Shown here: positions 13,540 through 39,036 of the stretch, in pieces
How the letters are laid out: every line of letters begins with the position of its first letter
Position numbering within the stretch: position 1 is the first letter of the stretch
DNA from: Rhizodiscina lignyota
Taxonomy: Eukaryota
Assembly (NCBI GenBank): GCA_010015805.1
Contig: ML978132.1
Span: 62,001-126,000, forward strand
DNA length: 64,000 nucleotides
Direction: 5' to 3'
Translations under genes and position numbers: made by a program
Notes under the pieces: generated by a model
Told to the model about the DNA's origin: nothing
What the model saw: only the letters and a program-made list of their open reading frames with translations
Database searches by the model: none

Positions 13540-14742
13540 TTCCATTTCGAATCCAAGCGAACGTCAACTATCTCCCAAGAGCAGCATCGATCCTCAATCG
13601 CAGCGAAGCGACCGATAAACTACTCATCGGTATCGCTATGGTCCGGTTTGCATCTGAAGTTCTGCGCCTCTCCAGCGAATTCGAACAAATCCATTCTGGC
13701 TCAGATGTCGCTCCCGCCTCAGACACAATTAGGACATTGATACAAGGTACACAAAGTTCTAGAATCTGGCCTGAAGCTTTAAACTTTTGACACGGTGGCC
13801 CAGGGATGGTCTTTCATGTCATTGCATTTATCAGGCAGCCGCCTCGGAATTGAACCTGAGGGCAGATGTAGACCGACCTTAATGTCAGCAATATTACATT
13901 AACCAGAACAAAGAACATACCTTTACTCGTCTTAGAAAGGCCTGCCTCCGCATCAAAGGAACGCTTTCGTCGAAAACTAAGTCTTGATTCGCGTGAAGTA
14001 CTTGCCTATATTTTTAATCAAATATATGATTCCCCACACCCCGCACAACATTAAGCCATTGAACATCCAGGCAGAGTCAGGAAGGTTAGGGGGTCGTGCT
14101 TCTTGGCAGGCCTGGAGATATGAATACTACACATACTGAAACCCGTGGTGTTGGCCATCGTGCAACCCAATGACGAGGTCTTGCACTACTTCAAGGTTGC
14201 GCCCTGCATGTGGTCCAGTCCCTTCGACCAAAAAAGTTGATGTTGGCCAATCATACCGCCGGATCGCAGAGGTTTTCTCCTTTCGTACAATTTCAACCGA
14301 GCCACCGATTGCCAGAGATTAGCCGTGCAAAACGGAGCTCGCCGCGGCGCTGTGGTTGGCTGCCACACGCGCATTGTAGACGGCAGCCACAATAGCAGGG
14401 TCCGTGCCACGCCAAGACCACGCGGCTCTTAGCTCTTTAGATCAGCGGCCACCACTTTTACACAAACGCAGAACGAACACCCGCACAACCTCTCTCACTA
14501 CAAAACCTCACCACTTCTTCTTCCTCTTGCACTGCTTCTGCAAACCTCCAACCTTCTACCTTTCCCAATTACCCTGCTCGGCACATTTTCTGTCGACGTG
14601 ACACGCGCAATCAGCGCCAAACTCACATTGCACGCCTCGCGTCTTTCACTCTTCAAGCTACTTTCGACACCAACATCTTGCGCGAACAGCACGCGTTTCC
14701 GCACAACACCCCTCGCCGGGCATTCGGCAGACCTTTGTCGAA

Positions 14743-17700
14743 ATGCCGCCCGGCCAGAAGCGCAAGCGCGGCGACGCAAACTATCCAACAGATCGAAATG
14801 ACAGCAACTCGCAGCGGCCATCCCCGCATCGGCCTCAGAATATGGGCCTCGCACAGCACAACCAGCTGCAACACCCAGGCGGTCGTGGTGGCAGGCAAGC
14901 AAGTGGAAATCGAGGTGGCAGGCGCGGCTCTGCTTCCTTCGGATCCAGGGAGCCTGGAAGCGCAAACGCGTCTGCTGCTGGTCAAGGTCCAGCATCGAAC
15001 ACCACAATGTCTCCTCCGGCGACAAATCCTCCCCCAACCCGAGCTCCGCCGGTGAGCACACCTAACACTCCGACCATGACGCCAGCAAATCCGCAATCGA
15101 CTGCGGGAATTCCACTTGGAACAGCAGGAAAGATCTTGCCGACAAACTTCTACTACCGCTCTCTCACAAAGGATCGTGTCGCAGCATGGCAGGATACTGG
15201 AAAGGCTGTCGTCCTCCAGGAGACAAAGGCAGCGTTAGAAGAAGGAAAGGCAGCCTTAAAGGCAGCCTTGGCGGTCATCGAAGCAACGGCGGCCGGAGAA
15301 GCAAAGGCAGCTATAGAAGCAAAGGTCGCTGTCGTCCAAGAAGCAAACAAGGAGCTTCAGAAGGGCATTCTTCCAGATGCGCTCTTCGAAGAGCTCATTC
15401 GAGCCACGATCGAAAACCGGCTGCCTGCCAAGGAAGCCGGCTCTGTGGTGAAAGAGCTCTTAGCATCTCAGACTGCATCCGCGCAAGAGCATCTTGCAGA
15501 AATCTTCCTCGACACACTCTCGGTCATGACTCTCAACTTCGAGGCTCGTAGAGCCGAGGCCGCCATACCTGACGTTCCTAATCCCGGCGCTATCCATGAT
15601 CTCGTAGTCGCAACCGACATTTCCGCCGACACAATGCGGGACCAGCTTGAGACATACCTTCTCATGGCTTGTGGTCTCACACGTCAGACTTTCGACCGAG
15701 CGATCATTCGATACACGACGAATCATGTTTACCGCCAAGCTGCATTCAATTTGCTCAGAGAAGAGTCTGAGGGCTACAGCAAGCTTGTGACGGAATACTT
15801 CACGACTGTACAAGGCCACATAGTCGCCGTACCAAGCCAAGAGCTTGTTGATGAGACCTTTATGAAGGTGAAAGCCCTGATCGGCACTTTCGATCTTGAC
15901 GTGGGAAGAGTGCTGGATGTCACCCTCGACGTGTTCTCAAACCTTTTGGTGAAGCATCATCGATTCTTCATCAAGTTTCTGAGGTCCAGCTCCTGGTGGC
16001 CCGCAGAGAAGACATTTGAGCAGGCTGAGTGGACAGACAAGCCCTTCGGCTCGTTGCCGGCGTGGGCAGAGCGTGATTACGACCCAACTGCCGTCAATGA
16101 GGAAGAGCAGAAGGCCAAGAAGTCTCAGTTGAGAGAGGTCCGGGATATTGCATTCTGGCAGCGTGTTGAAGAAGTCGGACTTGCGGCATGGTTCGAGCTT
16201 GGCGGTCGTCGACTAATGGACCCAGAAGAAAAGGCAAAGTTCGAGAACATGGAGCAACCTGGTTCGAAGGATGAGAAAGAGCAGGAGTCCTTGATGGACA
16301 ACAATTGGATCGCTGTAACCGGAACCATGCCACCGCAAGGCAATCGCATTGCTGCTCAGCTCATGGGATTCAAGTTGCGCAATTACACCGATCCTGCTCG
16401 CAAGACCAAGGACCACCTCCTCGACAATCTTATCTTTCTCGCAGCGCTCCTCATCAAGATCGGTTTCATCTCTCTGCGCGATCTTTACCCTCACCTTTAC
16501 CCAGATCCCGAGACTATGGAGAAAGAAATCAAGCCCAAGCTCGAGAAGGAGAAGGCAGAGCGCGAGAGAAAGAGTAGGCCTGGAGGAGGCATGAATGCTT
16601 TGTTGACAGCGGGGGCACTTGTCGATGACACTCTACCTACGCAACAACACTCAAGACTGCGAGACTCCAACACAGGCCACTCTACACCCAAGTCGGATCC
16701 TCCTGGTAAACCCGAGGAAAATGCGAAGAAGGAACTTCCACCACCTGCAGACCAAGTGATTGCTCTATTGAAGAGTCTCCTCATGATCGGAGCGCTTCCA
16801 GAATCGCTCTTCATCCTCAGCAAGCACAAGTGGCTGATGGATTTGCAACCAGAACTTCCCCAGTACGTCCACCGAGTCTTGCATCAGTCGATCTCCAAGG
16901 TCTACGAATCCGTGCGATCAGCATCGGAGTGCAATCGCGATCAAACGCACAAACCGGTCTATGTCCACAATGCAGGCATGCCCCAGGGTGAATTCGAAAT
17001 GTCGGCCGCAGTTCCGAAGAAATCATTGAAGTGGGCAAGAATGGAGAAGTACAATGACGAGGGTACTGACTACATCTTCTACTGGGAAGACTGGATCGAC
17101 AACGTTCCGATTTGTCAGACTGTCAACGACGTCTTCCTGCTTTGCAATAGCTTCCTCAACGTCTCAGGCGCCAAGATCGGCGAAGACTCCAACCTTCTGG
17201 ATAAGCTTGTGCGAATCGGCAAGTACTCGCTGGCAAATGACTCCAGCGAAGAGAACTTTAACCGCTGGGCCGATCTGTGCAAGCGCCTGCTAGTACCTGC
17301 TCTTTCTCTCACCAAGTGCAACCCTGGCATTGTTAATGAAGTTTGGGATCTCATCAAGATGTTCCCCGCTGCAACGCGGTACAGCATGTATGCTGAGTGG
17401 CATAGCGGGCCGACTTCTAGACAGCCTGCTATCCTTTCCGCATTCAACCAAGCAAGAGCTGAGACGAAAGACGTTCTGAAACGCATCAGCAAAACCAATA
17501 CCAAGCAAATGGCGCGCTTACTAGCTAAAGTTGCCTATGCGAATCCTGGTGTCGTCTTCGCTGTCACTTTCAATCAGATTGAAAGCTACAACAACCTCAT
17601 CGAAGTTGTTGTTGAATGCGTGCGCTATTTCGCCTTCCTGGGTTACGATGTGCTCATTTGGTCACTTTTGGCCTCACTTGGCGGCAAGAGTCGAGACGCT

Positions 17701-20700
17701 AAGCAAGGCGACGGCATGCTCACTTCGACTTGGCTGCAAGCGCTCAGCCATTTCACTGGCAAAGTCTTCCACCGCTACGCCGTTCTGAATCTCAACCCCA
17801 TTCTCCGCTACGTATGCTTCCAGCTTCGTCAAGGAAACAGCTCTGATCTTGACATTCTCCAAAACCTCGTCGAGGTTATGGCTGGCATCTCACCTCCAAT
17901 CAGCTACAATGAGTGGCAGATACAAGCCTTGGCCGGCGGAGGTGCACTGCTCCGGGAGATTGTTTTCACGCAGACTCAGGACAACCGCAACAAGGAAAAG
18001 ACCACGGCGAAGAGACTAATGCGCTCCTTAACTGAATTGCCGAGTGGAAACGATTCACAAGGCCTACTTGGTCCTCAACTGCTCGTCATGCTGGCGCAGG
18101 AGCTGTTGCTCTTCCCAAATCGGGACGATGTCCGGAACGATCCGCTCAAGGTGATGGCGAACAACCTCGACAGGATCTACCAGGCATTTTGCCAATACCT
18201 TGAGATGTTGAGATGGAACATGACTCCGTCAGAGTTTGACGCAATCATCCCCGATGTCGCTGCTTTGATAGAGGACTTTGGAATATCTCCAGAGATTGCG
18301 TGGACCATCGCGAGACCAAGCATCAACGCACAAATCGAGAGAGTCAAACTCGCGCAAACCGCAAAGGAGGCCGATACCCAAAAGACCCTCGAGAACGGCG
18401 ATGTTGAAATGACCGATGCACCTTCGCCCGCAGAGAAGCCTGTTGGTGCCAATGGCTCATCCGAAGGAGGACCAGCTGCTGATCAAGTCATGATCGAGGA
18501 GGCAAAGCCGACACCAGAGGTTTCTTCCGTCGATGCTCAATCTGTGCCACTTGCGAATGGCACTCCTCCGGTCCAAACGCCGACCCCTCCAGTGTCTGCG
18601 CAAACTTCGACCCCAACAGCAGAGGAGATCATGGCTTCAGCACTTACGCCATACATCGACCGCTTTAAGCAGATTCTCCCAATCGATTTTGAGGATAACC
18701 TTGGCATCCAGTTCTATGTCACGTTCTGGCAGTTCGAGCTCGGCGATATTATTTCCCCAACGAAACTGTACTCGGCCGAGATGCTGAAGCATAGTCAGAA
18801 GTATCAGATGATAGAAGAGAAACTGAAGCCGTTGCGAGCTCGCCTGGCACGCACTGGGTCCAAAGCAACACCTCAAGTTACTGCCCTGGAGAAAGAAAGC
18901 GACGACGAGCGCAAAAAGGCTAGTGACATCTTGTCTGAGCTTAATGTCTGCGTTGCTAGATATCAACGTGGCATGAAGCGTTTGGCGCAGGAGAAAAAGA
19001 CTTGGTTCGATGCCTACCTTGGAGAAGGAAACGATCCGATACACGGTATTTTGCACCAGGCTCTTTGGCAACACTGCTTCCTTCCTCGGATCCTTTTATC
19101 TGCCAGCGACGGGCTCTATGTCTTCAACCTGATCATGTATCTGCACAACAATAACGTGCCTGGTTTCCGATTGATGAGGTTGCTCGACTTCATATTCCAA
19201 ACGGACCAGATGATCGCGACAATATTCCACTTCACGACGCGTGAAGCGGAGAACTTTTCGCGCTTCCTGGCTATGCTGCTGAAGCTTCTGAAATCATGGT
19301 ACTCAAGCAAGGAGACCTTCGAGAATGCTGCACTTGGCATCAAGGATAAGAATCCGACTGGCTCTGTCGGATTTGCGATGAAATGGACTAAGGAGCCTTG
19401 GTCGCCAACGCTTCATCTCACATTCGCGCAGTTCCTTAATGTGATCACGAAGTGGCAGGGTCAGCTTTGCCGTTCTATCAGCAACTGCATGAAAGGCGGA
19501 GAATACATGCATATCCGAAACGCCATCGTACTCCTCAAGGCCACGGATCAGTTCATTCCGAACATTGATGCGCATGCTGATATGATTTTCGATGCACTCA
19601 CGCCCTTGAAGACCCACGAGGAGAGGCAGGATATCAAGCTTGCAGCGACAGGTGTGTTTGGTGATCTGGACAAGAGGCGGGACAAGGAGGATTTTGTCAC
19701 AGTTCAGGCTTTCAAGGGAGTGGCACCTGCGAATGATCAGACAACGACCACCACTGTGAAGCCGCCGATTGCAAAGGCCGGAACACCACGAGCAAACACG
19801 CCACAGCCGCCAAGCAATACAAAGGTGCTCAGTGCCTCAGCGCCAACGTTCAAGCCTGGTGTCAACGGGACAACGAAGCCGCCTGTATCTGGGAAGCAGG
19901 ATGTTGAGGATGGCGAGATTGGGGAGACCGAGGAGTCAAAGAAGACGGAAGCTCAGGACAAGAAGGCGACGGAAGTAACAACAGCGGATATACAGAAATC
20001 TGATTCTACCAAACCGGTCGAAGCACCAAAGATCTCTGCCCCAGCTACCTCCGCACCGCCTTCGAAGCCGGCTACTCCTGCGCCTCCTGCTGCGAAGCCT
20101 CCATTGCCATCTCAAGCTTCGCACTCTGCACCGCGTGCAGATCCCCCGAAGTCAGGTCCATCCCTATCTACAGCACCATCCATTCATCCAAGAACTGAGG
20201 GTAGTCGACCGCCTTCCACTCAGCCTCCTGTTGGCCGAGCGCCTCATGCTCTACCAAACCGACCTGAAGGCCGCATCCCCAGCGGAAGAGTCAATGATCG
20301 ACCAGGAGACCGAAGCCATGACTATGGTAGAGGTGATCGACCGGGAGAACGAGGCGATGACTATGGTAGACTTGATCGGCCAGGCGAGCTGAAGCGAGAT
20401 GAGCGACAAGGTCGTTCTCCGGCGGCAAATCGGAGCCGCAGCCGTTCCCCAGATCGAAGTGCAGCGAACTATCGCGACCGAGAACCCTTACATGGTCCAT
20501 CAAGAGACGCTCGTAACGGTCCAGATGATAGAAGATTCCCACCTCGGGATACCCGCGCTCCACCGGCACCAATAAGCACTCCCCGTGATCGAATGCAAGA
20601 GTCGTCGCGTCCGTCTCCGGCATCAGACAGCAGGGCTCGTCCATCTCAAGGCGTATCTTCGAATGCAGCTGCTCCCACTCAGCAAGAACATGGTTCTATG

Positions 20701-22008
20701 CTCAATCCCGAGCGTGCAGCCTTGATGGAGCAATCAGAGCGCGGCCCCCCACCTCAGCATGACCGTCCACCCATCAACGGCGACCGCTCAAGATTCCGTG
20801 ACGATCGTGGACCACCGAGCGATCGAGACTTTGGCCGACGCACTGATGGTACTAGCGAGCGAGAGACACGCAGCCAGCGAGGCTCCCGACATCAGTCTCC
20901 TCGTCGTGACGATCGTGGATCTCTCCGCAACGAGCCAGGCCGAGATGACCGTGGATCTCTCCGCAACGAGCCAGGCCGGGATGATCGTGGATCTCTCCGC
21001 AGCGAGCCAGGCCGAGATGGCAGGCGGGACGATCGTGCTGCTCCACCCGAGCGCGCCCCTCCTCCAAGTCCAGCTCCGAGCCGAGATGCTCGTGATAATG
21101 CTCCAACGGGCCCTCGTGACACGCACACTTCGCGCGGTAGTCGAGACTTGTTCCATCAGCCACCGCCTCCTCGTCAGCCAGTTGATCTCAACCATGGCCG
21201 CTTGTCGCAGGACTTCGCAGTGCCTCCTCGTCCTAGTGATCCGAATTACGGTCGATTGAGCACAGGCGGTGCAGCACCTACTGGTCCTGACATTCCCTCT
21301 GGCCCTCGTGGACGTCCTACCCCGCGTGGAGGACGCAACTACAACGCACCAGCTGACACTACTGGCATTCATCCAAGCCGACTGGCCAACATCAACGCGC
21401 CGCCTTCGAAGTTGCAGACGCAGAACTTGCCCTCGCCATCCTCGCATTCGTCCGGCTTCCCTCCGTCTGGCCCTCCGTCTGGCCCACGCAGCGCACGCGG
21501 TGGTGCAACCAACAATCCTTTCGGCGCAGGAGCTTCTCCTGTTTCAGCTAGGCCAGGCCCACCAGGTGCCCCCACCGGCCCAGGCGCTAGCGCAGGCGAT
21601 CGCGACCGAGAGCGAAGGCAAGGAGACGATGCTAGAGACAAGCGCTTCTCTGGCTTGAACAGCATTCTGCAGGGAGCTCCCGGAAGCGAGGAGCGTGAGC
21701 GTCGTACCGATCTGATGCATTCGCGCGCTCCCTCGGACCACCGCGAGCGTCCCGACATGGACGAGCGCGGTGGCAGAAAGCGTGAGGCGCGTCGACGGTC
21801 AAGAAGCGCACATGAGCGTGGCGGTGAGAGGGATGGTGCCCGGCGGGTACCAAGCAGCAGCGGCGGACAGGGCGAGCGCGGCGCTCGCCGTCGCGAGGAT
21901 CGTGGTCGTGAGCGGGATGCACAATGGGGGGAGAGGGAGAGGAAGAGAGGTCGTGGTGCTGGGGATGAAGGCCCCAGCCCCGACGTGAAGAGGAGTCGGC
22001 GGGGATAG
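14743..22008 (+). CDS. THO2: THO complex subunit 2, 2421 aa, single exon
   Basis: YRQAAFNLLREESEGYSKL, LIGTFDLDVGRVLD, ETKDVLKRISKTN...AYANPG, FYVTFWQ, EYMHIRNAIVLL, and a long R/D/P-rich disordered C-terminus. Confidence 0.95.
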   Translation: MPPGQKRKRGDANYPTDRNDSNSQRPSPHRPQNMGLAQHNQLQHPGGRGGRQASGNRGGRRGSASFGSREPGSANASAAGQGPASNTTMSPPATNPPPTRAPPVSTPNTPTMTPANPQSTAGIPLGTAGKILPTNFYYRSLTKDRVAAWQDTGKAVVLQETKAALEEGKAALKAALAVIEATAAGEAKAAIEAKVAVVQEANKELQKGILPDALFEELIRATIENRLPAKEAGSVVKELLASQTASAQEHLAEIFLDTLSVMTLNFEARRAEAAIPDVPNPGAIHDLVVATDISADTMRDQLETYLLMACGLTRQTFDRAIIRYTTNHVYRQAAFNLLREESEGYSKLVTEYFTTVQGHIVAVPSQELVDETFMKVKALIGTFDLDVGRVLDVTLDVFSNLLVKHHRFFIKFLRSSSWWPAEKTFEQAEWTDKPFGSLPAWAERDYDPTAVNEEEQKAKKSQLREVRDIAFWQRVEEVGLAAWFELGGRRLMDPEEKAKFENMEQPGSKDEKEQESLMDNNWIAVTGTMPPQGNRIAAQLMGFKLRNYTDPARKTKDHLLDNLIFLAALLIKIGFISLRDLYPHLYPDPETMEKEIKPKLEKEKAERERKSRPGGGMNALLTAGALVDDTLPTQQHSRLRDSNTGHSTPKSDPPGKPEENAKKELPPPADQVIALLKSLLMIGALPESLFILSKHKWLMDLQPELPQYVHRVLHQSISKVYESVRSASECNRDQTHKPVYVHNAGMPQGEFEMSAAVPKKSLKWARMEKYNDEGTDYIFYWEDWIDNVPICQTVNDVFLLCNSFLNVSGAKIGEDSNLLDKLVRIGKYSLANDSSEENFNRWADLCKRLLVPALSLTKCNPGIVNEVWDLIKMFPAATRYSMYAEWHSGPTSRQPAILSAFNQARAETKDVLKRISKTNTKQMARLLAKVAYANPGVVFAVTFNQIESYNNLIEVVVECVRYFAFLGYDVLIWSLLASLGGKSRDAKQGDGMLTSTWLQALSHFTGKVFHRYAVLNLNPILRYVCFQLRQGNSSDLDILQNLVEVMAGISPPISYNEWQIQALAGGGALLREIVFTQTQDNRNKEKTTAKRLMRSLTELPSGNDSQGLLGPQLLVMLAQELLLFPNRDDVRNDPLKVMANNLDRIYQAFCQYLEMLRWNMTPSEFDAIIPDVAALIEDFGISPEIAWTIARPSINAQIERVKLAQTAKEADTQKTLENGDVEMTDAPSPAEKPVGANGSSEGGPAADQVMIEEAKPTPEVSSVDAQSVPLANGTPPVQTPTPPVSAQTSTPTAEEIMASALTPYIDRFKQILPIDFEDNLGIQFYVTFWQFELGDIISPTKLYSAEMLKHSQKYQMIEEKLKPLRARLARTGSKATPQVTALEKESDDERKKASDILSELNVCVARYQRGMKRLAQEKKTWFDAYLGEGNDPIHGILHQALWQHCFLPRILLSASDGLYVFNLIMYLHNNNVPGFRLMRLLDFIFQTDQMIATIFHFTTREAENFSRFLAMLLKLLKSWYSSKETFENAALGIKDKNPTGSVGFAMKWTKEPWSPTLHLTFAQFLNVITKWQGQLCRSISNCMKGGEYMHIRNAIVLLKATDQFIPNIDAHADMIFDALTPLKTHEERQDIKLAATGVFGDLDKRRDKEDFVTVQAFKGVAPANDQTTTTTVKPPIAKAGTPRANTPQPPSNTKVLSASAPTFKPGVNGTTKPPVSGKQDVEDGEIGETEESKKTEAQDKKATEVTTADIQKSDSTKPVEAPKISAPATSAPPSKPATPAPPAAKPPLPSQASHSAPRADPPKSGPSLSTAPSIHPRTEGSRPPSTQPPVGRAPHALPNRPEGRIPSGRVNDRPGDRSHDYGRGDRPGERGDDYGRLDRPGELKRDERQGRSPAANRSRSRSPDRSAANYRDREPLHGPSRDARNGPDDRRFPPRDTRAPPAPISTPRDRMQESSRPSPASDSRARPSQGVSSNAAAPTQQEHGSMLNPERAALMEQSERGPPPQHDRPPINGDRSRFRDDRGPPSDRDFGRRTDGTSERETRSQRGSRHQSPRRDDRGSLRNEPGRDDRGSLRNEPGRDDRGSLRSEPGRDGRRDDRAAPPERAPPPSPAPSRDARDNAPTGPRDTHTSRGSRDLFHQPPPPRQPVDLNHGRLSQDFAVPPRPSDPNYGRLSTGGAAPTGPDIPSGPRGRPTPRGGRNYNAPADTTGIHPSRLANINAPPSKLQTQNLPSPSSHSSGFPPSGPPSGPRSARGGATNNPFGAGASPVSARPGPPGAPTGPGASAGDRDRERRQGDDARDKRFSGLNSILQGAPGSEERERRTDLMHSRAPSDHRERPDMDERGGRKREARRRSRSAHERGGERDGARRVPSSSGGQGERGARRREDRGRERDAQWGERERKRGRGAGDEGPSPDVKRSRRG
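20905..21015 (+). repeat. Three 36-bp tandem repeats in THO2 encoding DDRGSLRNEPGR
   Basis: Directly visible repeated GAY CGT GGA TCT CTC CGC ARC GAG CCA GGC CGR units. Confidence 0.9.
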
Positions 22009-30910: not shown

Positions 30911-31685
30911 CTGCAGACGGGAGTGAGGGGGAGATGTGAGATTAATGCAGGTGTCGTCGTGAGAAAGATTTCCAATGGCAGGGATACGCGACCGGGACGC
31001 TCGGACATCAACCCAAAGTGGACGACGTTTTTAAGCCACGGCCCACGGAAGGCGAGCCTCTCGCCATGACGATCTCATGACTCTCATTCCATCTGGATAT
31101 ATGGAGTGTGCCAATCTCGTTAGCTTATATTTGCTTGCTGATCAAGTTAGAATACAAGTAATCCCGCAACAAAGTACCTTCTTTTGCTTCTTGCGGTTAC
31201 CGTCAGGCGTAGAACCCCTTCTCCTGTTGTGAAGATGTGTTTTATCGTACTGACTCTCTCCTCTCTGAGGAACATCAATCACTCCGAATAATCTCTATAA
31301 TAACCTTAGGGTATTGCGCATTTTCGCGTTCTCGCTCTCAGATGCTATCAAACGCCGTTCTACGATGCTTTTAGTCCTGGAGTTCTGCCTCTCAACTTCA
31401 ACAGTGCTTGGTATCTGAGACTCTTGTTTCGAAACGTATGAACAGGCTTCGGAGAATAGATACAACATATGTGGGGTATCATCGTCTCCAAAGAAGCCGT
31501 AGACGCCGATCCCTCCTTTCCGAAGGATTCAAATTTTCCGGGAATTCATGGCGGTGCGGGGGTTCGGCTTGAGAAAGCGCGAATGCTCAAGACGATCATG
31601 GTTTGGATGATATTCTATTATCCTCTAAATATGCAAGTGGGTGCTTGGTGACCGGTACCTGCTTGCAGAAATCCCTTCCCACAAA

Positions 31686-33469
31686 ATGCTCTTCGTACTG
31701 CCTCTCCTGGCTCTCACTCTGTCAAATATAAAGGCAGTATCTGCTACCTTCCATGCTCCTGCAATTAAGCTCTCATATGGTACATTCAGTGGCTCATACT
31801 CTGACGAATACAACATTTCGTATTATCGAAAAATACCATATGTGGCCCCTCCGGTAGGCGAAAACCGCTGGCGCGCTCCGCAACCTCCACATCACATCCA
31901 GTATGGCACGTATGATACAGACCAGTCATTTCCGCTATGCCCCCAAGGATCAAATGGCACTGGCTCAGAGGACTGTCTATATCTCGGCATCTACTCTAGG
32001 CCATGGAAGGAGGGTGCCAAACGACCCGTTGTGGTAGAGATCCATGGAGGCGCGTATTCAGCAGGACTAGCATCGTTCAATATCCCACCGTTTGGGTACC
32101 CCACATTGAATGCCAGCGTGCAGAATGATTTTATCTTTGTCTATCCAGCGTATCGATTGAACGTGTTTGGCTTCCTGCCTGGTAAAGAGATTAAGCAGGC
32201 AAAAGATACCTGCTTAAATATCGGCCTGCTGGACCAGCAAGCAGCGCTTCGTTGGGTGTATGAGAATATTGAGCAGTTCGGAGGGGATCCGCGAAACGTC
32301 AGCATTTGGGGTCAGTCTGCTGGTGGAGGTTCTGTTCTCGCACAGACGATAGCGAACGGCGGCAAAACAACTCCGAAGCTATTCTCAAGGGCGCTGGCAA
32401 GCAGCCCGTACTGGGTGAAGCAATACAAGTACGACGATCCTGAGGCCGAATGGATATTCACCAGTCTCGTCAATTTAACCGGGTGTGCAGGTGCAGCTGA
32501 CAGTATCGCGTGCATGAGAGCATTGGACACGCAGACAATATACAATGCTAGCATGCAGATCCCATTGTATCGGCCTTGGTACACCAGTACCAATACTTGG
32601 TCTCCTGTTGTTGATGGAGATTTTCTACAGACGCATCTCTCAACAGCCGTATCAGAACGAAAGTTGAATGCGGAACTTGTCTGGGGCATGTACAACACTC
32701 ACGAGGGTGAAGGATTCGTACCGACACAACTCCTCAATATGACAGGAGGACCAATGAACTCGTCTGAGGCAGGTTTTGATTACTGGCTTCGCGGATACCT
32801 GCCGAGGTTTTCTGCGGCGGAGTTGGATCAGGTCAAGAAGCTTTACCCGGCAGTGGGCACGACCGAGACTATGACGTACAACGCAACAGATCAGAGAGCA
32901 GGATTGATTTATCGTGATACAGTACTGGCATGCTCCGGCTATTGGGTGGCTTCCGCAGCACCTAAAGGATGGCAGGGAGAGTACACGATACCTCCTGCCC
33001 TTCACGTAAGTATTCGAGCCTGGACGTAACTTTAACCGCTCATATCCGGCCAGGGGAGTGAGCAAGTGTATGTCTGCGGGGAACCAGGGTACAACTCAAC
33101 TTGCGAGGTGCGTAGATATACATACCTAAAATATGTCGCCAGCTAACGAACAATCAGTGGAACCACTGGCCCACGAACAATGAGACAGAAGTTGAGCGCT
33201 ACCTCGGCATTGCGGGAGCTTTCTCAAGCTTCCTCCAAACAGGTGATCCAAATGCGCACAAGGTACGATCTTCGACAGTGTGATCATATGCCAGAGTTGC
33301 TTGCTTACGACACATACAGCTAACGAATCCTTCTGTGCCCGGAGTGCCGCCGTTATCCAAGGATCTGTTGTGGACGATGGATCCAAATGGCTTTCACCAG
33401 AGACCGATCAAGCAATTGAAAGAACGGTGCAAGTTCTGGCATGAGCTGGCGCTCAAGGTACCCGAGTAG
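31686..33469 (+). CDS. Secreted type-B carboxylesterase/lipase
   Basis: Signal peptide, IPYVAPPVGENRWRAPQ, SEDCLYL, IHGGAY, FGGDPRNVSIWGQSAGG (catalytic Ser). The 3' exon structure is partly uncertain. Confidence 0.88.
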
Positions 33470-34633: not shown

Positions 34634-36559
34634 ATGGAAGCCCTTCTCCGCCAGTCCAGGGCAATGTGTCCATTTTTGAAGAAGACGTCCCCCGCGACGC
34701 TTCGTAGTCTCTCGACCTCGACGGCTCAGAGCGCCTCGACCGGTGGTAGCACCATGTCCAACCTTCAGGTTGTTGCCCGCCGCTGCCCAGTTATGGGCAA
34801 AGCGCTCGCCGTACAGAGCGCTCGTGCTGGAAACGCCGCCCTTGCCGGAGCGTACGGAACGGCCTTTGTCAGGGCTTATCACGCGAAGGTGAACAGAGCC
34901 AATCTGCACACTAGCAGTGCCAAAGAGGCTCAGGCCGTCGATGTGGGTGTGGGACGTGAGGTTGAAAGTATGTACTATGCTGTGGCATTCGCCACACCCC
35001 GCAGTTGACCGGAGCATTCGTTAACAAGTCGAACAGCCCCATTTCCTAGCAAGTACAAGCCTGCCACGGCCGAACATATCCAGGAGCCTCAATGTATCCC
35101 TCCAGCGGCTCCCAAGCCTGCCAAGTTCGACTACGAAAGGTTTTATGGCAATGAACTTGACAAGAAACACAAGGACAGGTCTTACCGCTACTTCAACAAT
35201 ATCAACCGCCTTGCGAAAGAGTTCCCGCGAGCTCATACGGCCGATAAGGATGAGCGTGTGACAGTGTGGTGCTCCAACGACTACCTTGGCATGGGCCGCA
35301 ATGCACACGTACTGAAGACTATGCACGAGACGCTTGATAATTATGGTGCCGGAGCAGGTGGAACAAGGAACATCAGCGGTCACAATCAGCATGCTGTGGG
35401 ATTGGAGAACACTCTGGCCAAACTGCACTCGAAAGAGGCAGCATTGGTCTTCACCAGCTGCTTTGTCGCCAATGACGCTACCCTCGCGACCTTGGGGAGC
35501 AAACTTCCCAACTGCGTCATTCTCTCCGACAGCCTCAACCACGCCAGCATGATCCAGGGTATCCGCCACTCTGGCACCAAGAAAATGGTGTTCAAACACA
35601 ACGACATGGTTGACCTGGAGAATAAACTCGCAAGTCTGCCGCCTGACCAGCCTAAGATCATCGCGTTCGAGTCTGTGTACAGCATGTGTGGTTCCATCGG
35701 ACCAATTGAACAGATCTGTGACTTGGCTGAGAAGTACGGTGCGGTCACTTTTCTCGATGAAGTCCATGCTGTTGGCATGTATGGACCACACGGTGCAGGC
35801 GTTGCAGAGCATCTCGACTATGAAGCCCATGTCGCTGGCAAGCCCAAAGGCACTGTCATGGACCGCATCGACATCATCACTGGCACATTAGGCAAGGCAT
35901 ATGGCTGTGTTGGTGGCTACATTGCTGGGTCTGCCAAGATGGTCGACACCATCCGTAGTCTTGCGCCAGGTTTCATCTTCACCACCAGTCTTCCACCTGC
36001 GACAATGGCGGGTGCCCAGGCCGCAATTGAGTACCAGCGCGCATACCAGGGCGATAGGAGGCTCCAGCAGCTCCATACTCGTGCAGTTAAAGAGGCTCTC
36101 AATGCTCGAGACATTCCTGTAATTCCGAATCCGAGTCACATCGTCCCAATCCTGGTTGGAGATGCTGAGACCGCGAAGAAGGCGAGTGACATGCTACTGG
36201 ACAACTGGGGAATCTACGTTCAAGCCATTAATTATCCTACTGTTCCAGTTGGACAGGAGAGGCTCAGGATCACGCCAACGCCAGGGCACACGAAGGAGTT
36301 GAGGGACCATTTGGTCGAGGCCATCCAGACTGTCTGGAAGGACCTGGGCATCAAAAAGACCAGCCAGTGGGCTGAACAGGGCGGATTCATTGGAGTTGGA
36401 GTGAAGGACGCGGCGGCTGAGGAGCCGTTGTGGACCGATGAACAGCTCGGTCTTGAGGATGCGGTCAAGGAGATGAAGACTGGGAACGCCTTGGGCGTTT
36501 TGGAGAGTGTGCTGGAGAATGATGCACACAGGGCTGCACCAATCGCTGCGGCTGCTTGA
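34634..36559 (+). CDS. HEM1: 5-aminolevulinate synthase, mitochondrial (one intron)
   Basis: Presequence with CP heme-regulatory motifs (MCPF, RCPV), [32 protein letters not shown] and GTLGKA (PLP lysine). Confidence 0.97.
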
Positions 36560-37225
36560 ATATAGGCTCCGTCTACGAGGCCTGCCCGAATGATGTGGAT
36601 ATGAAGATGATATGTGCAGATGGAAATGTGGATCAGATCAGTGATGCAAAGACCGTGCCGATCTTTGCTCAATATACTACGTTCGATCTGACGCTTTGCA
36701 TTTCCAAACTGCTCTGTTCCTCCATTTGCACCCTTTGATGTGGCTGTCACTGAAACAAAACCTTGGACGCTCCGCTATGTGTACGATTTCCAAACGTTCA
36801 CTGAACTCGTGCTGTAGCCACCATGTGCTCGCTGCAAGCCACATTCCGTTGTTGATCAACTCCCCTTGCAACCTATGCCCGCCCGCATACTATTCTGGAA
36901 GTCCAATGCAACAGTCTTAGTTGTCTTTGGCATGCTGGGTCTGGATCTCAGACTCGAAGAGGCATCGATGTCTGCTTAACTCGTGCCCATTACTACCTAA
37001 TATCATAGAATGGATGGGCATAGCTGATATCTTTTCAAGATCACAACCAGCCAAAAAATAAATATATAATAATAAGAGTGGATTCGACTTTGCGTATGTC
37101 TCCCACAGATAAGTTATGCATTTTTATAAGTGCCTCGGGTAGCTGTGATAGAGTGGGTCTACCGACGAGCTGCCCCGCCGTCGAGCACCTATCAAGAGCG
37201 TTGTCTTCGAAAACTAAATCTTTAG

Positions 37226-37232
37226 TATATAT
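37226..37232 (+). promoter_or_regulatory. TATA-like element upstream of the tRNA-Leu gene
   Basis: TATATAT lies 33-39 bp upstream of the mature tRNA 5' end; function is inferred. Confidence 0.45.
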
Positions 37233-37264
37233 TGAACATGACAATTTCAGAAAGCCAACAAATT

Positions 37265-37469
37265 GGTGAGATGGCCGAGTTGGTTATGGCGTGTAAGTTT
37301 CCATTACGCACTAAACAATTAGTCCATGTCCTGACAACCATACAGCAGGTTAAGGTTATACCTTAATACGACTCTCCTGATGGGGTAATCCCGCGTGGGG
37401 TATGTTAACTCGTCCAAATTTATAATACATTATTCTAACTAGTGAAAAGTTCGAATCCCACTCTCATCA
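37265..37469 (+). tRNA. tRNA-Leu(AAG) with one canonical intron (37356-37374) and two spliceosomal-type introns (37293-37345, 37400-37449)
   Basis: Joining exons 37265-37292, 37346-37355, 37375-37399 and 37450-37469 gives an 83-nt cloverleaf: acceptor GGTGAGA/TCTCATC+A, A-box TGGCCGAGTTGG, anticodon stem TCAGG/CCTGA with loop TT-AAG-GT, a long variable arm, and T-arm GTGGG-TTCGAAT-CCCAC. Confidence 0.9.
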
Positions 37470-37475
37470 TCATTC

Positions 37476-37483
37476 TTTTTTTT
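37476..37483 (+). terminator. Oligo-T RNA polymerase III terminator
   Basis: A run of 8 T begins a few nucleotides after the tRNA discriminator base. Confidence 0.75.
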
Positions 37484-37652
37484 GCCCTTTTCTCCGTCTC
37501 TCTCAGACTCATGGCAATCTTTGAGTCTTTTAGCCTTTTGGCTCTATAGCCTCTTGCTCTATATATATATCTCTCTCTGGAGGTGCAATTCGAGACGAAG
37601 ATCATCTTATTTTGCTTCATTTTGATGAAGGTTGTGTGTGTGCCATGAGATA

Positions 37653-37694
37653 GCCCCCCTGCCCCCCCCCTTCTTTTTTTTTTTTTTTTTTTTT
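37653..37694. repeat. Poly-C/poly-T homopolymer tract
   Basis: C runs followed by a ~20-nt T run. Confidence 0.85.
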
Positions 37695-38268
37695 TGGCTC
37701 TGCCGTCTCAACTGATGACCTCCACATAGAACTTCACCACTTTCCTTCAGGTGCTCAATTCAAATCTTTAGTAGACTCGATTCACTAATTGTCAGTAAAC
37801 CAGCAATTATACCAGGACGTTCTCAAAAAGGCGTTCAGTCACTATCAGCATAAGTTAATTCCATCCGGAGAGGATAGATATGATGCTCTCTCACAAAGAC
37901 CTACTTTATAAGAAGCTATGTCGGGAAGCTCGACTAACGGAGTCCACTTCCCCAGTACACACAGTCTTAAGTGACGAAACCCTAAGCCACCGACAGTTCG
38001 TGGTATGATGCAACACCACCAAGGGTGCAACATCATTCTCATATTACAGCCCCGGTGTCAGTGTTCGCATTGATCATGAGTTCACGTTCCTGCACTTCAA
38101 CACCCTGCCCTCTATTTAAATCAGGGCTCATTAAGATTCTCCCACTTTGCAACTTCAAATCCATTCATCAAAGCAGGCAACAAGCACGACAGGTTGCATC
38201 TGCAAGCTTGATCAAAGTCTATACACACAACACCTTCAAGCAATTACCCGCATCACAAACCGAACACG

Positions 38269-39036
38269 ATGGCCTTTGGCGGCGTTCGTGGCATACCCAC
38301 GGGTCCCAATGGAACTCTGGGGGTCGTCATCAATGGTATGATGATCCCCCTCGAAGTATTTCAAGCCTCCGGGGCGAACCCTTGTAAACACCTCGTCCGC
38401 GAGGATTCATATTGCTTTAAGGGATGCTACGGCCCTGGTCCGGGAGGAATGTTCGCCGATATCCTAGGCAGAGACCCCATGATGGGTAGAGGAAGAGCGG
38501 GTGGTGGCATGATGGCAGGGGCCCAGTTCGTGAACCCTCGAGAACCACGCATGATGGACCCGCGACTGGATATGGGCCATCAAGAAGATCCGACAATAAG
38601 GTTTCTGAACCCTCGAAGCCCGAGATTGTTGGACCACATAGCGAGCATGCACCCGAGAGACCAAGAAATTGCGTGTGCGCGAATGGGTATAAGTCCATGT
38701 CCGTTTGTGGGTGTACCGTTAGGTATGCGCCGTCCAGATCCGACGATGATGGATCAACGAATGGGTATGGGGCCTCGAGACCCGAGAATGATGGATCAGA
38801 GAATGGGTATGGGGCCTCGAGACCCGAGAATGATGGCACAAATGGGCATGCGTCGTCCAGATCCAAGAATGATTACCGAGCAGTACGGCATGGATCCGGA
38901 GGAGCTTGACGAGCTCACGGGTCTGGACCCTCAACCTGTAGATGATCTGGGTCTAGGGATCTATGAAGGCGACGGATTTCCTCCTCGGGGTCGCGGCTTC
39001 AGGCGTCCATTCAATTACCTCGAACGGGGATACTGA
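38269..39036 (+). CDS. Met/Gly/Pro/Arg-rich low-complexity protein with tandem repeats
   Basis: Intronless 255-aa ORF with 42-bp repeats encoding MMDQRMGMGPRDPR; TATTTAAA upstream at ~38113. Confidence 0.65.
   Translation: MAFGGVRGIPTGPNGTLGVVINGMMIPLEVFQASGANPCKHLVREDSYCFKGCYGPGPGGMFADILGRDPMMGRGRAGGGMMAGAQFVNPREPRMMDPRLDMGHQEDPTIRFLNPRSPRLLDHIASMHPRDQEIACARMGISPCPFVGVPLGMRRPDPTMMDQRMGMGPRDPRMMDQRMGMGPRDPRMMAQMGMRRPDPRMITEQYGMDPEELDELTGLDPQPVDDLGLGIYEGDGFPPRGRGFRRPFNYLERGY

Follow-up and report, generated by a model that had tools for sequence, protein, structure and literature searches.

Introns of nuclear tRNA genes are presented in two reviews as the task of the tRNA endonuclease and a ligase (PMC12530127; PMC10275265), and spliceosomal introns are reviewed as a feature of RNA polymerase II (Pol II) transcripts, with U6 snRNA as the odd exception made by Pol III (PMC5855946). 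According to the same source, fungal U6 snRNA genes also contain mRNA-type introns, up to four per gene, and in S. pombe it is the spliceosome that excises the intron of U6; in its promoter, U6 has a TATA box together with A and B blocks, like the gene described here (PMC5855946). Canonical GT-AG introns are described as well for U1, U2 and U5 snRNA, U3 snoRNA and ascomycete rRNA genes, where they were recognised computationally from their signals; in the rRNA genes they lie in genes outside the Pol II system, as is proposed below for tRNA-Leu (PMC5855946; PMC5832005). For most of these fungal introns in genes other than mRNA genes, splicing has been experimentally shown in a few species only. 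Unlike our case, the passages on these introns name no tRNA (PMC5855946; PMC5832005). The tRNAscan-SE 2.0 paper treats the search for non-canonical introns as archaeal and does not mention spliceosomes, and a literature search conducted mostly outside the subscription journals returned no earlier description of tRNA genes with spliceosomal introns.

Interrupted tRNA genes of another kind are known from Cyanidioschyzon merolae, whose nuclear tRNA genes are multiply interrupted, including their A and B boxes; it was proposed that Pol III is driven there without TFIIIC, by a TATA-like box upstream and a stretch of T downstream (PMC3978253). The introns of C. merolae, nucleomorphs and archaea are bulge-helix-bulge (BHB) substrates of the tRNA endonuclease, whereas the inserts described here have no BHB and carry full spliceosomal signals. 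In genes of the type found in our window (the whole 64-kb stretch of DNA analysed), unlike in C. merolae, no intron ever interrupts the A box, and in the DNA the B box can still be read.

A perfect tRNA-Leu(AAG) was found by ARAGORN on the forward strand of the window (positions 37265-37469) once two GT..AG inserts had been excised in silico. With only these two inserts taken out, the product was a class-II cloverleaf of 83 nt with A73, a long variable arm and a 19-nt intron at the canonical site. A73 is an identity element of tRNA-Leu. The features of the gene are, in window coordinates:

37226-37232, forward strand: TATATAT element, a candidate TBP/TFIIIB site, -39 to -33 from the mature 5′ end
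37265-37292, forward strand: exon 1 (28 nt), with the acceptor 5′ strand, the D arm and nt 26-27
37272-37283, forward strand: A box TGGCCGAGTTGG, nt 8-19, uninterrupted on direct reading
37293-37345, forward strand: insert 1, a 53-nt GT-AG intron between nt 27 and 28
37346-37399, forward strand: exon 2 (54 nt), with the anticodon arm (AAG), the variable arm and the T stem 5′ strand, and with the canonical intron inside
37356-37374, forward strand: canonical 19-nt tRNA intron at 37/38, from ARAGORN on the gene spliced in silico
37400-37449, forward strand: insert 2, a 50-nt GT-AG intron between G53 and T54
37448-37458, forward strand: B box as DNA, AGTTCGAATCC, made of the last two intron bases and nt 54-62
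37450-37469, forward strand: exon 3 (20 nt), with the T loop, the T stem 3′ strand, the acceptor 3′ strand and the discriminator A73
37476-37483, forward strand: T8 run, a candidate Pol III terminator, +7 to +14 after the discriminator

That such a cloverleaf is obtained by removing exactly two segments is far beyond chance. The gene most likely carries three introns of two kinds, namely U2-type GT-AG introns at 27/28 and 53/54 and an ordinary tRNA intron at 37/38. A reading of the locus made earlier from the sequence only (hereafter the sequence-only reading) had noted two GT-AG inserts, a B box cut exactly at G53/T54 by the second of them, a TATATAT element 33-39 bp upstream and a T8 tract just downstream; all of these are present in the sequence, and the two inserts have the full set of spliceosomal signals. 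A placement of insert 1 at 26/27 had to be corrected to 27/28, since exon 1 is 28 nt long, and this insert sits past the first pair of the anticodon stem. The 19-nt intron contains a stretch complementary to the anticodon loop and is expected to be a substrate of the tRNA splicing endonuclease (TSEN). Before splicing, ARAGORN recognised no tRNA in the window DNA and Rfam none in the gene DNA even at E<=10, where just three chance matches to snoRNA/sRNA families appeared (E>4). The DNA of the locus is not an assembly error; positions 36900-37653 showed no differences to contigs of an independent public run with a depth of ~147, and these contigs were DNA-like, without joints; a second run yielded nothing at the locus.

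Relatives were sought in metagenomes with the pattern GTGGGGTNNGT-N{32,62}-AGTTCGAATCCCAC, i.e. a T arm split at 53/54. The pattern matched nine metagenome loci representing six distinct sequences, five of which (L002, L003, L006, L004 and L005=L007) gave a tRNA-Leu after in-silico splicing. L003 and L006 are ~95% alike, as judged by eye from the alignment, so that there are four distinct genes beside the window's and five with it. Environmental DNA thus contains four newly found further distinct tRNA-Leu genes, with anticodons AAG and UAG, all of which have an intron at 53/54. A second GT-AG intron lies elsewhere in two of the relatives, in the D loop of L002 and in the variable arm of L004, the latter having an internal exon of 13 nt. 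We read L003 and L006 as putative Leu(UAG) genes on account of their class-II shape, A73 and the pairing between intron and anticodon; for the same features, the ARAGORN call of Arg(TCT) with a 16-nt intron was set aside. The ‘Ile’, ‘Glu’, ‘Val’ and ‘Gly’ calls that ARAGORN made when long introns were allowed were false alternatives that appeared when the wrong segments were excised. The sixth sequence (L001=L008=L009, one sequence from three samples) formed no cloverleaf, whether or not one extra intron was taken out, and was excluded from all counts.

As a control of specificity, the same pattern was run on 596 Gb of prokaryote genomes and gave a single match (L010), which proved to be an ordinary tRNA-Pro of a bacterium next to a 5′ match that arose by chance and served as control only; viral contigs gave no match. 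By blastn, the similarity of the relatives to the window was limited to the last intron bases and exon 3, with a short piece of the trailer in addition in L002 and L004, and tblastx found nothing. Only this shared 3′ end of the gene was detected; the relatives are not orthologous loci with alignable flanks. The independence of the five genes rests on these non-alignable flanks and on their different stems. The position 53/54 is common to the five distinct genes; the bodies of the introns at this position were not aligned.

All eight distinct inserts are 49-55 nt long, start with GTRNGT and end with AG. In the window gene, insert 1 starts with GTAAGT, ends with CAG and contains CTGAC at 37331-37335, and insert 2 starts with GTATGT, ends with AAG and contains CTAAC at 37435-37439, the branch A lying 11 nt from the 3′ end in both. 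The 5′ splice sites of the relatives are GTACGT, GTATGT, GTAAGT and GTGAGT. For five 53/54 inserts the search pattern forced GTNNGT, but it did not force the purine at +3, and A or G occupies this position in all inserts. The pattern likewise did not force the YTRAY motif that is found in 8/8 distinct inserts, where the branch A precedes the 3′ end by 10-12 nt (CTAAC in five, CTGAC, CTGAT and TTAAT in one each). The background for this is 25 of 195 GTRNGT..AG segments, each 45-60 nt long and taken from the window, a set that includes real introns. The window also contains ten likely mRNA introns that join open reading frames, 50-79 nt long and with GTRNGT, CTRAY and YAG; this set is heuristic and informs on the size range and on the frequency of T4+ runs only, because the regular expression behind it demanded GTRNGT and YTRAY. 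Compared with this heuristic set, the inserts of the tRNA genes match the mRNA introns of the host in size and signals.

The stems were conserved across the relatives. The 12 pairs of the acceptor and anticodon stems in six sequences gave 72 cells, and all 72 were paired. Double (compensatory) changes occurred at 3-70, 4-69 and 7-66 in the acceptor stem and at 27-43, 28-42, 29-41 and 31-39 in the anticodon stem; pair 30-40 changed from GC to CG and also showed a single-sided TG. A73 was present in 6/6 sequences. Between L003 and L006 there was no difference in 96 exon nt, compared with two differences in the T-arm intron (GTATGT versus GTAAGT, both of which fit the consensus) and one in the canonical intron. 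As judged from these comparisons of sequence, the mature tRNAs are under structural selection. Because of the splice signals in 8/8 inserts and the stems kept by compensatory changes, the GT-AG inserts are very probably real spliceosomal-type introns in functional tRNA genes.

The internal promoter of the window gene is modified by these introns. The A box consensus is TRGCNNAGTGG, and the A box of the gene lies intact in exon 1. The B box, although cut by insert 2, is rebuilt in the DNA by the last G of the intron, as the sequence-only reading had stated: the DNA reads ...AAAAG|TTCGAATCC, and therefore 10 of the 11 positions of the B box GTTCGAATCC remain contiguous, with A in place of G52. 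Among 12 matches to B-box-like motifs in the 64-kb window, AGTTCGAATCC is the only one that precedes a T run. Introns of Schizosaccharomyces U6 genes reportedly hold a match to the B box, to go by the title of a 1990 report by Frendewey. Unlike in U6, the B box of the window gene is split and restored by a 3′ splice site, rather than being located inside an intron. The distance from T8 to T54 (positions 8 and 54 of the tRNA) is 178 bp in the gene compared with 56 nt in the 83-nt mature tRNA. The ‘~120’ extra nucleotides given for the spacing of the two boxes hold as a number, with 122 counted; the figure takes in the canonical intron, since 122 = 53 + 19 + 50.

Across the five genes the T8-to-T54 spacing is 122-180 bp, beyond the range usual for tRNA genes yet smaller than the ~200 bp of SNR6. 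Distances between A and B boxes are usually 30-90 bp. The split promoter had been presented as a paradox for transcription, but this is weaker than stated: S. cerevisiae SNR6, with ~200 bp between its A and B blocks and a TATA box, is still bound by TFIIIC and served by it (PMC5855946). The B block of SNR6 is located past the terminator, whereas in the window gene the B box is inside the transcribed gene and the additional spacing consists of introns. It is also described that S. cerevisiae tRNA genes with an upstream TATA element can be transcribed in vitro without TFIIIC (PMC3978253).

Which polymerase makes the precursor is a point on which two readings differ. The TATA promoter might belong to Pol II, whose transcript would be capped, possibly polyadenylated and spliced co-transcriptionally before RNase P and RNase Z free the tRNA, similarly to tRNA-like pieces that are cut from long Pol II transcripts; we regard this as unlikely, albeit worth consideration. 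The TATATAT at -39 to -33 is also where the TATA box of a Pol II gene would be, and two or three introns with a 13-nt internal exon, as in L004, are typical of Pol II genes. Moreover, the introns had been regarded as constrained to lack T4+ runs, and this did not hold up. T4+ was found in 0/8 distinct tRNA inserts, in 2/10 likely mRNA introns and in 12-13% of random 52-nt windows; with a probability of ~0.3 for zero in eight, the absence is not significant and therefore gives no argument for Pol III. L004 even has TTTT within its canonical intron. T4 is probably no terminator in fungi; to terminate, Pol III needs five T in S. pombe, and S. cerevisiae requires six (PMC5356446). At this greater length the T runs speak against a Pol II unit, which would not need them: a run of T5-T8 begins 6-27 nt past the discriminator, within 31 nt, in 5/5 distinct genes (T8 at +7 in the window, T5 at +6, +27, +6 and +17 in the relatives), compared with a background of 1.2-1.4% of 30-nt windows of the genome, and within the five genes themselves T5+ is absent, the longest run being 3-4 (3 in either insert and across the whole window gene). 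In the DNA, both the A box and the B box are also preserved. The introns spare the A box, which is intact in 5/5 genes, including L002 with its D-loop intron beginning right behind the box; the regenerated B box of the relatives gives no independent support, because the search pattern forced it. TATATAT is present in three of the five genes, at -39 in the window, -42 in L003 and L006 and -48 in L005, compared with a background of 0.16% per 20-nt window, and the remaining two have TATA-like AT boxes. At 30-40 bp upstream, a TATA box would be compatible with a promoter of Pol II too. Splicing of Pol III transcripts is known from U6 (PMC5855946), which further weakens the case for Pol II. Transcription by Pol III, which the sequence-only reading had proposed, thus appears as the better-supported option and is favoured over Pol II from the terminators, the A box and TATATAT, although not from the avoidance of T4.

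The remaining explanations do without the spliceosome, and we consider each of them very improbable. Removal by the tRNA endonuclease at non-canonical sites followed by ligation, the GT..AG ends being incidental, has precedents in C. merolae, nucleomorphs and archaea; for C. merolae, interrupted A/B boxes are likewise described, with a TATA-like box upstream of the gene and a T stretch behind it (PMC3978253; PMC9602550). In our inserts, minimum free energy (MFE) folds of each insert with 15-nt flanks, with junctions read by eye, contained no BHB, and on direct reading the four bases inside each junction were non-complementary. The eukaryotic enzyme measures from the mature tRNA body to 37/38 (PMC10275265). 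By these features the GT-AG inserts (27/28 and 53/54; no BHB) do not resemble TSEN or BHB introns, whereas the 19-nt intron at 37/38 does. The endonuclease route would also leave the combination of GTRNGT, YTRAY at 10-12 nt, AG and the size of host introns in 8/8 inserts unexplained. The sequences might otherwise be dead or never functional, i.e. pseudogenes or tRNA-derived repeats in which the inserts are merely intron-like and nothing is spliced. Standard tRNA finders reject the locus, and the tRNA-like fragment L001=L008=L009 has no cloverleaf, so that degenerate look-alikes do exist. This explanation is opposed by the perfect cloverleaf upon excision, by the compensatory changes that keep every stem pair, by the confinement of the L003/L006 differences to introns, and by the preservation of A73, splice signals, terminator and upstream AT box while the flanks are unalignable.

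The gene is most likely a working nuclear tRNA-Leu(AAG) gene of a fungus, and the style of its introns suggests an ascomycete-like one. From the structure of the gene, its splice signals and their conservation among relatives, and the signals for promoter and terminator, we infer the polymerase, the splicing and the order of steps as follows. Pol III would transcribe the entire 205-bp unit, with TFIIIB positioned over the upstream TATATAT and aided by TFIIIC on the intact A box and the rebuilt B box, whose spacing would be stretched to 178 bp in the manner of yeast SNR6; the T8 run would end transcription. In the nucleus, the spliceosome would take out both GT-AG introns from this short transcript without an m7G cap, comparably to fission-yeast U6. 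The T arm and the tRNA body would form only after this removal, and therefore end trimming, export and the cleavage of the 19-nt intron by TSEN would come later. The sequence-only reading had already put the spliceosome before TSEN, and this appears sound: TSEN54 is described to take its measure from the mature tRNA body, and both budding yeast and fission yeast have the SEN complex on the surface of their mitochondria (PMC10275265). The whole chain, from Pol III through the spliceosome to TSEN, seems to us rather probable. In contrast to U6, the gene in the window would also depend on TSEN, a splicing system unrelated to the first, for the intron at 37/38.

A wider reading, which we hold with moderate confidence, is that a fungal lineage keeps spliceosomal introns in nuclear tRNA genes that are Pol III units and are served by the spliceosome first and then by the tRNA endonuclease. 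On the same reading, one old intron at 53/54 would be shared, across at least five organisms, by genes for Leu(AAG) and Leu(UAG), and further introns would have been gained at the D loop, 27/28 and the variable arm; both points seem likely to a similar degree. If true, one small RNA passes both eukaryotic splicing systems, because the spliceosome acts before the tRNA endonuclease, and tRNA joins the list of spliceosome substrates. These genes would then be a natural system for how the spliceosome finds introns on a short, La-bound Pol III transcript that is not m7G-capped, and would show how much stretching and splitting the internal promoter of Pol III tolerates. They would also reveal a blind spot in the annotation of tRNA genes. 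Unspliced, none of the nine metagenome loci nor the window gene was recognised by standard tRNA finders; since these missed all of them, the tRNA sets of such genomes would be under-annotated, and further cases may hide in other tRNA families.

The findings would, if true, also bear on the origin of new introns. The host RNA of the window introns is a tRNA and, unlike U6, no component of the spliceosome; therefore the usual account of origin, by reverse splicing into an RNA of the catalytic centre, is not directly applicable. The introns are placed within a loop, where stem and loop meet, or a single pair deep in a stem, and these sites would fit an origin by reverse splicing into a folded tRNA followed by reverse transcription.

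The tRNA-Leu(AAG) gene of Rhizodiscina lignyota is split by two GT-AG inserts and is laid out as follows.

37265-37292, + strand: exon 1, 28 nt as cut by coordinates
37293-37345, + strand: insert 1, 53 nt
37346-37399, + strand: exon 2, 54 nt
37400-37449, + strand: insert 2, 50 nt
37450-37469, + strand: exon 3, 20 nt

After in silico removal of both inserts, ARAGORN recognized an 83-nt tRNA-Leu(AAG) plus a 19-nt intron in the anticodon loop, at the canonical site. This intron, located at 37/38, is paired to the anticodon loop as in an ordinary TSEN substrate. ARAGORN found no tRNA in the unspliced DNA, and Rfam found none in the whole window at the gathering score or in 36600-38200 at E ≤ 10. 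Insert 1 had been noticed in the sequence-only reading and is indeed present; its site, however, had to be corrected to between nucleotides 27 and 28. Over 36900-37653, contigs of an independent public sequencing run (X1) showed no differences at a depth of about 147. Therefore, the locus is not an assembly artefact. The X1 contigs break exactly at 37654-37705, where a C run is followed by a homopolymer of about 26 T, some 190 bp 3′ of the tRNA.

Insert 1 begins with GTAAGT and terminates in CAG; the A of its CTGAC lies 11 nt from the end. The corresponding signals of insert 2 are GTATGT, CTAAC (A again 11 nt from the end) and AAG. Ten likely mRNA introns of the window, a heuristic set built by joining open frames, are 50-79 nt long and carry signals of the same kinds. 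Minimum free energy folds of each insert with its flanks lacked a bulge-helix-bulge and, by direct reading, there is no complementarity between the bases immediately within the junctions. The inserts thus do not match the non-canonical tRNA introns of archaea or red algae.

We scanned metagenomes with a pattern that required only this T stem, split at 53/54 by GTNNGT ... AG over 40-70 nt. Nine loci were recovered, representing six distinct sequences, and five of the six became class-II tRNA-Leu genes once spliced in silico. Two of these (L003 and L006; about 95% alike by eye from the alignment) come from one metagenome and were counted as one gene, leaving four distinct split genes beyond that of the window.

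Split tRNA-Leu genes found in metagenomes (locus, tRNA, introns)
L002, Leu(AAG): D-loop GT-AG, 53 nt; canonical, 10 nt; 53/54 GT-AG, 49 nt
L003 and L006, Leu(UAG): canonical, 16 nt; 53/54 GT-AG, 53 nt
L004, Leu(UAG): canonical, 22 nt; variable-arm GT-AG, 55 nt; 53/54 GT-AG, 51 nt
L005 = L007, Leu(UAG): canonical, 19 nt; 53/54 GT-AG, 51 nt

For L003 and L006, ARAGORN gave the label Arg(TCT), which arose by a shifted intron; Leu(UAG) is our own preferred reading, indicated by A73, a long variable arm and pairing between intron and anticodon. In L004 (170-441, +), a 13-nt internal exon lies between the variable-arm and T-arm introns. The sixth sequence (L001 = L008 = L009) is an identical 1262-nt locus from three samples that matched the pattern. 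It gave no cloverleaf on in silico splicing and was left out of the counts. Its start resembles the 3′ half of another tRNA; the locus is possibly a repeat derived from a tRNA, or else a gene from another organism that is interrupted more heavily. Viral contigs contained no match to the pattern, and 596 Gb of prokaryote genomes contained one (L010). Therefore, the pattern rarely arises by chance. Positions 601-688 of L010 are a plain bacterial tRNA-Pro(TGG), whose upstream flank fits the 5′ part of the pattern by chance.

The T stem, the position of the split (53/54) and both ends of the intron were prescribed by the search pattern for the five genes, window gene included, but several shared features were not forced by it. 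All eight distinct inserts have a purine at +3 and a YTRAY motif whose branch A lies 10-12 nt from the 3′ end; for comparison, this motif occurs in 25 of the 195 GTRNGT..AG segments of 45-60 nt in the window, true introns included. The two further GT-AG introns at new positions in the relatives were likewise not forced. Intron bodies and flanks did not align between loci: blastn recovered the shared 3′ end of the gene only, and tblastx gave no matches. Twelve acceptor and anticodon stem pairs in six sequences formed standard pairs in 72 of 72 cells, with double changes at acceptor pairs 3-70, 4-69 and 7-66 and anticodon-stem pairs 27-43, 28-42, 29-41 and 31-39. Pair 30-40 changes from GC to CG and, single-sidedly, to TG. 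L003 and L006 differ at none of 96 exon positions, at two positions of the T-arm intron (one being GTATGT vs GTAAGT) and at one of the canonical intron. On these comparisons, the predicted mature tRNA sequences are under structural selection. Strong comparative evidence thus points to real spliceosomal introns in working tRNA genes, because the conserved cloverleaves need exact removal of the inserts and the inserts keep spliceosome signals. Exact removal is the only route to these cloverleaves, and the signals kept are exactly those that the spliceosome needs.

A G2-U71 wobble is present in the acceptor stem of all six sequences (window, L002-L006), while neighbouring pairs vary. It may be an identity or processing element.

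The sequence-only reading had proposed Pol III transcription despite a split B box, and its description of the locus was confirmed. The split in the B box falls between G53 and T54 (AAAAG|TTCGAATCC in the DNA), the A box is intact (37272-37283), TATATAT occupies -39 to -33, eight consecutive T occupy +7 to +14 downstream, and the longest T run anywhere in the gene is three. Nucleotides T8 and T54 are 178 bp apart vs 56 nt in the mature tRNA, the extra 122 nt being both inserts and the canonical intron (53 + 19 + 50). The split B box is no paradox, since the G of the 3′ splice site restores G53; the box reads AGTTCGAATCC in the DNA, a sequence forced by the search pattern in the relatives.

The comparative data favour Pol III as the likely polymerase. 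A T5-T8 run begins 6-27 nt past the discriminator base in all five genes (T5 or longer occurs in 1.2-1.4% of 30-nt windows in this genome), and none has such a run inside. A run of five T is reported to suffice for termination in S. pombe, against six for S. cerevisiae and four for humans (PMC5356446). The A box is uninterrupted in 5/5 genes, the D-loop intron of L002 starting directly after it. TATATAT occurs at -39, -42 and -48 in three genes (background 0.16% per 20-nt window); L004 has TATAAG at -47 and ATATAT at -38, and L002 has TATAAT at -62. A TATA box suits Pol II as well as Pol III, and a Pol II promoter is possible, but it would leave the conserved T-run terminator unexplained. The proposed constraint of the introns against T4 did not hold up: its absence from all eight inserts is not significant against 12-13% of random 52-nt windows. 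T4 or longer occurs in 2/10 of the heuristic set of mRNA introns, and the canonical 22-nt intron of L004 holds TTTT, the sole T4 inside any of the five genes.

With Pol III, TFIIIC stretched over the longer distance could deal with the rest of the promoter, as could TFIIIB placed directly, or the two together. The T8-to-T54 spacing of 122-180 bp over the genes is outside the 30-90 bp usual in tRNA genes. The spacing in S. cerevisiae SNR6 is larger still, and TFIIIC works there at about 200 bp; SNR6 carries a TATA box as well (PMC5855946). In vitro, transcription of S. cerevisiae tRNA genes can do without TFIIIC if they have an upstream TATA, and C. merolae tRNA genes with interrupted A/B boxes are thought to be driven by an upstream TATA-like box (PMC3978253).

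In L003 (680-745) and L006 (reverse strand), a 26-nt trailer precedes the first of two T5 runs. It includes a short segment similar to the 5′ end of the same tRNA (TGAGATG), which could be a tandem-duplication remnant.

The GT-AG introns would be removed first, by the spliceosome in the nucleus, and the 19-nt canonical intron last. This order, also suggested in the sequence-only reading, is plausible because insert 1 breaks the anticodon stem and insert 2 the T loop, whereas TSEN54 measures from the mature tRNA domain, tRNA exporters bind the mature tertiary structure, and the SEN complex of budding and fission yeast is on the cytoplasmic face of mitochondria (PMC10275265). That a Pol III transcript can be a spliceosome substrate is known from U6: the spliceosome excises the U6 intron in S. 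pombe, and U6 genes of fungi have up to four introns of this kind (PMC5855946).

The four GT-AG sites are in the D loop, at 27/28, in the variable arm at the stem-loop edge, and at 53/54, also at a stem-loop edge. In the folded tRNA, these sites fall within single-stranded parts or at their borders, 27/28 being one pair inside the anticodon stem. Speculatively, this pattern would fit an origin in which introns reverse-spliced into mature tRNA and the product was then reverse-transcribed; equally, the sites may be those that leave promoter and folding tolerable. The 53/54 intron is common to AAG and UAG genes with identical T arms, and the window gene and L003 also have identical acceptor stems. 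Therefore, the data suggest a single old gain at 53/54, which then reached other genes through gene conversion or through duplication accompanied by an anticodon change.

The literature searched, which covered few subscription journals and main texts rather than supplements, contained no report of spliceosomal introns in tRNA genes and no paper with the phrase "spliceosomal introns in tRNA". Within its first 300,000 characters, a 2023 tRNA review mentions the spliceosome once, as a contrast only (PMC10275265), and the tRNAscan-SE 2.0 paper, which never mentions spliceosomes, takes non-canonical introns as archaeal bulge-helix-bulge introns. U1, U2 and U5 snRNA genes and rRNA genes also carry spliceosomal introns, and the review cited above for U6 regards what determines intron insertion into non-coding RNAs as unclear (PMC5855946); U3 snoRNA introns are likewise treated as spliceosomal (PMC5832005). 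Our finding would add tRNA to the stable RNA genes known with mRNA-type introns.

The genes neighbouring the tRNA are ordinary.

14602-22008: THO complex subunit 2 homologue
31629-33029: carboxylesterase-family protein
35009-36559: class I/II aminotransferase

An ORF at 38212-39036 had no Pfam match, and the tRNA occupies the 1.65-kb gap between it and the aminotransferase gene.
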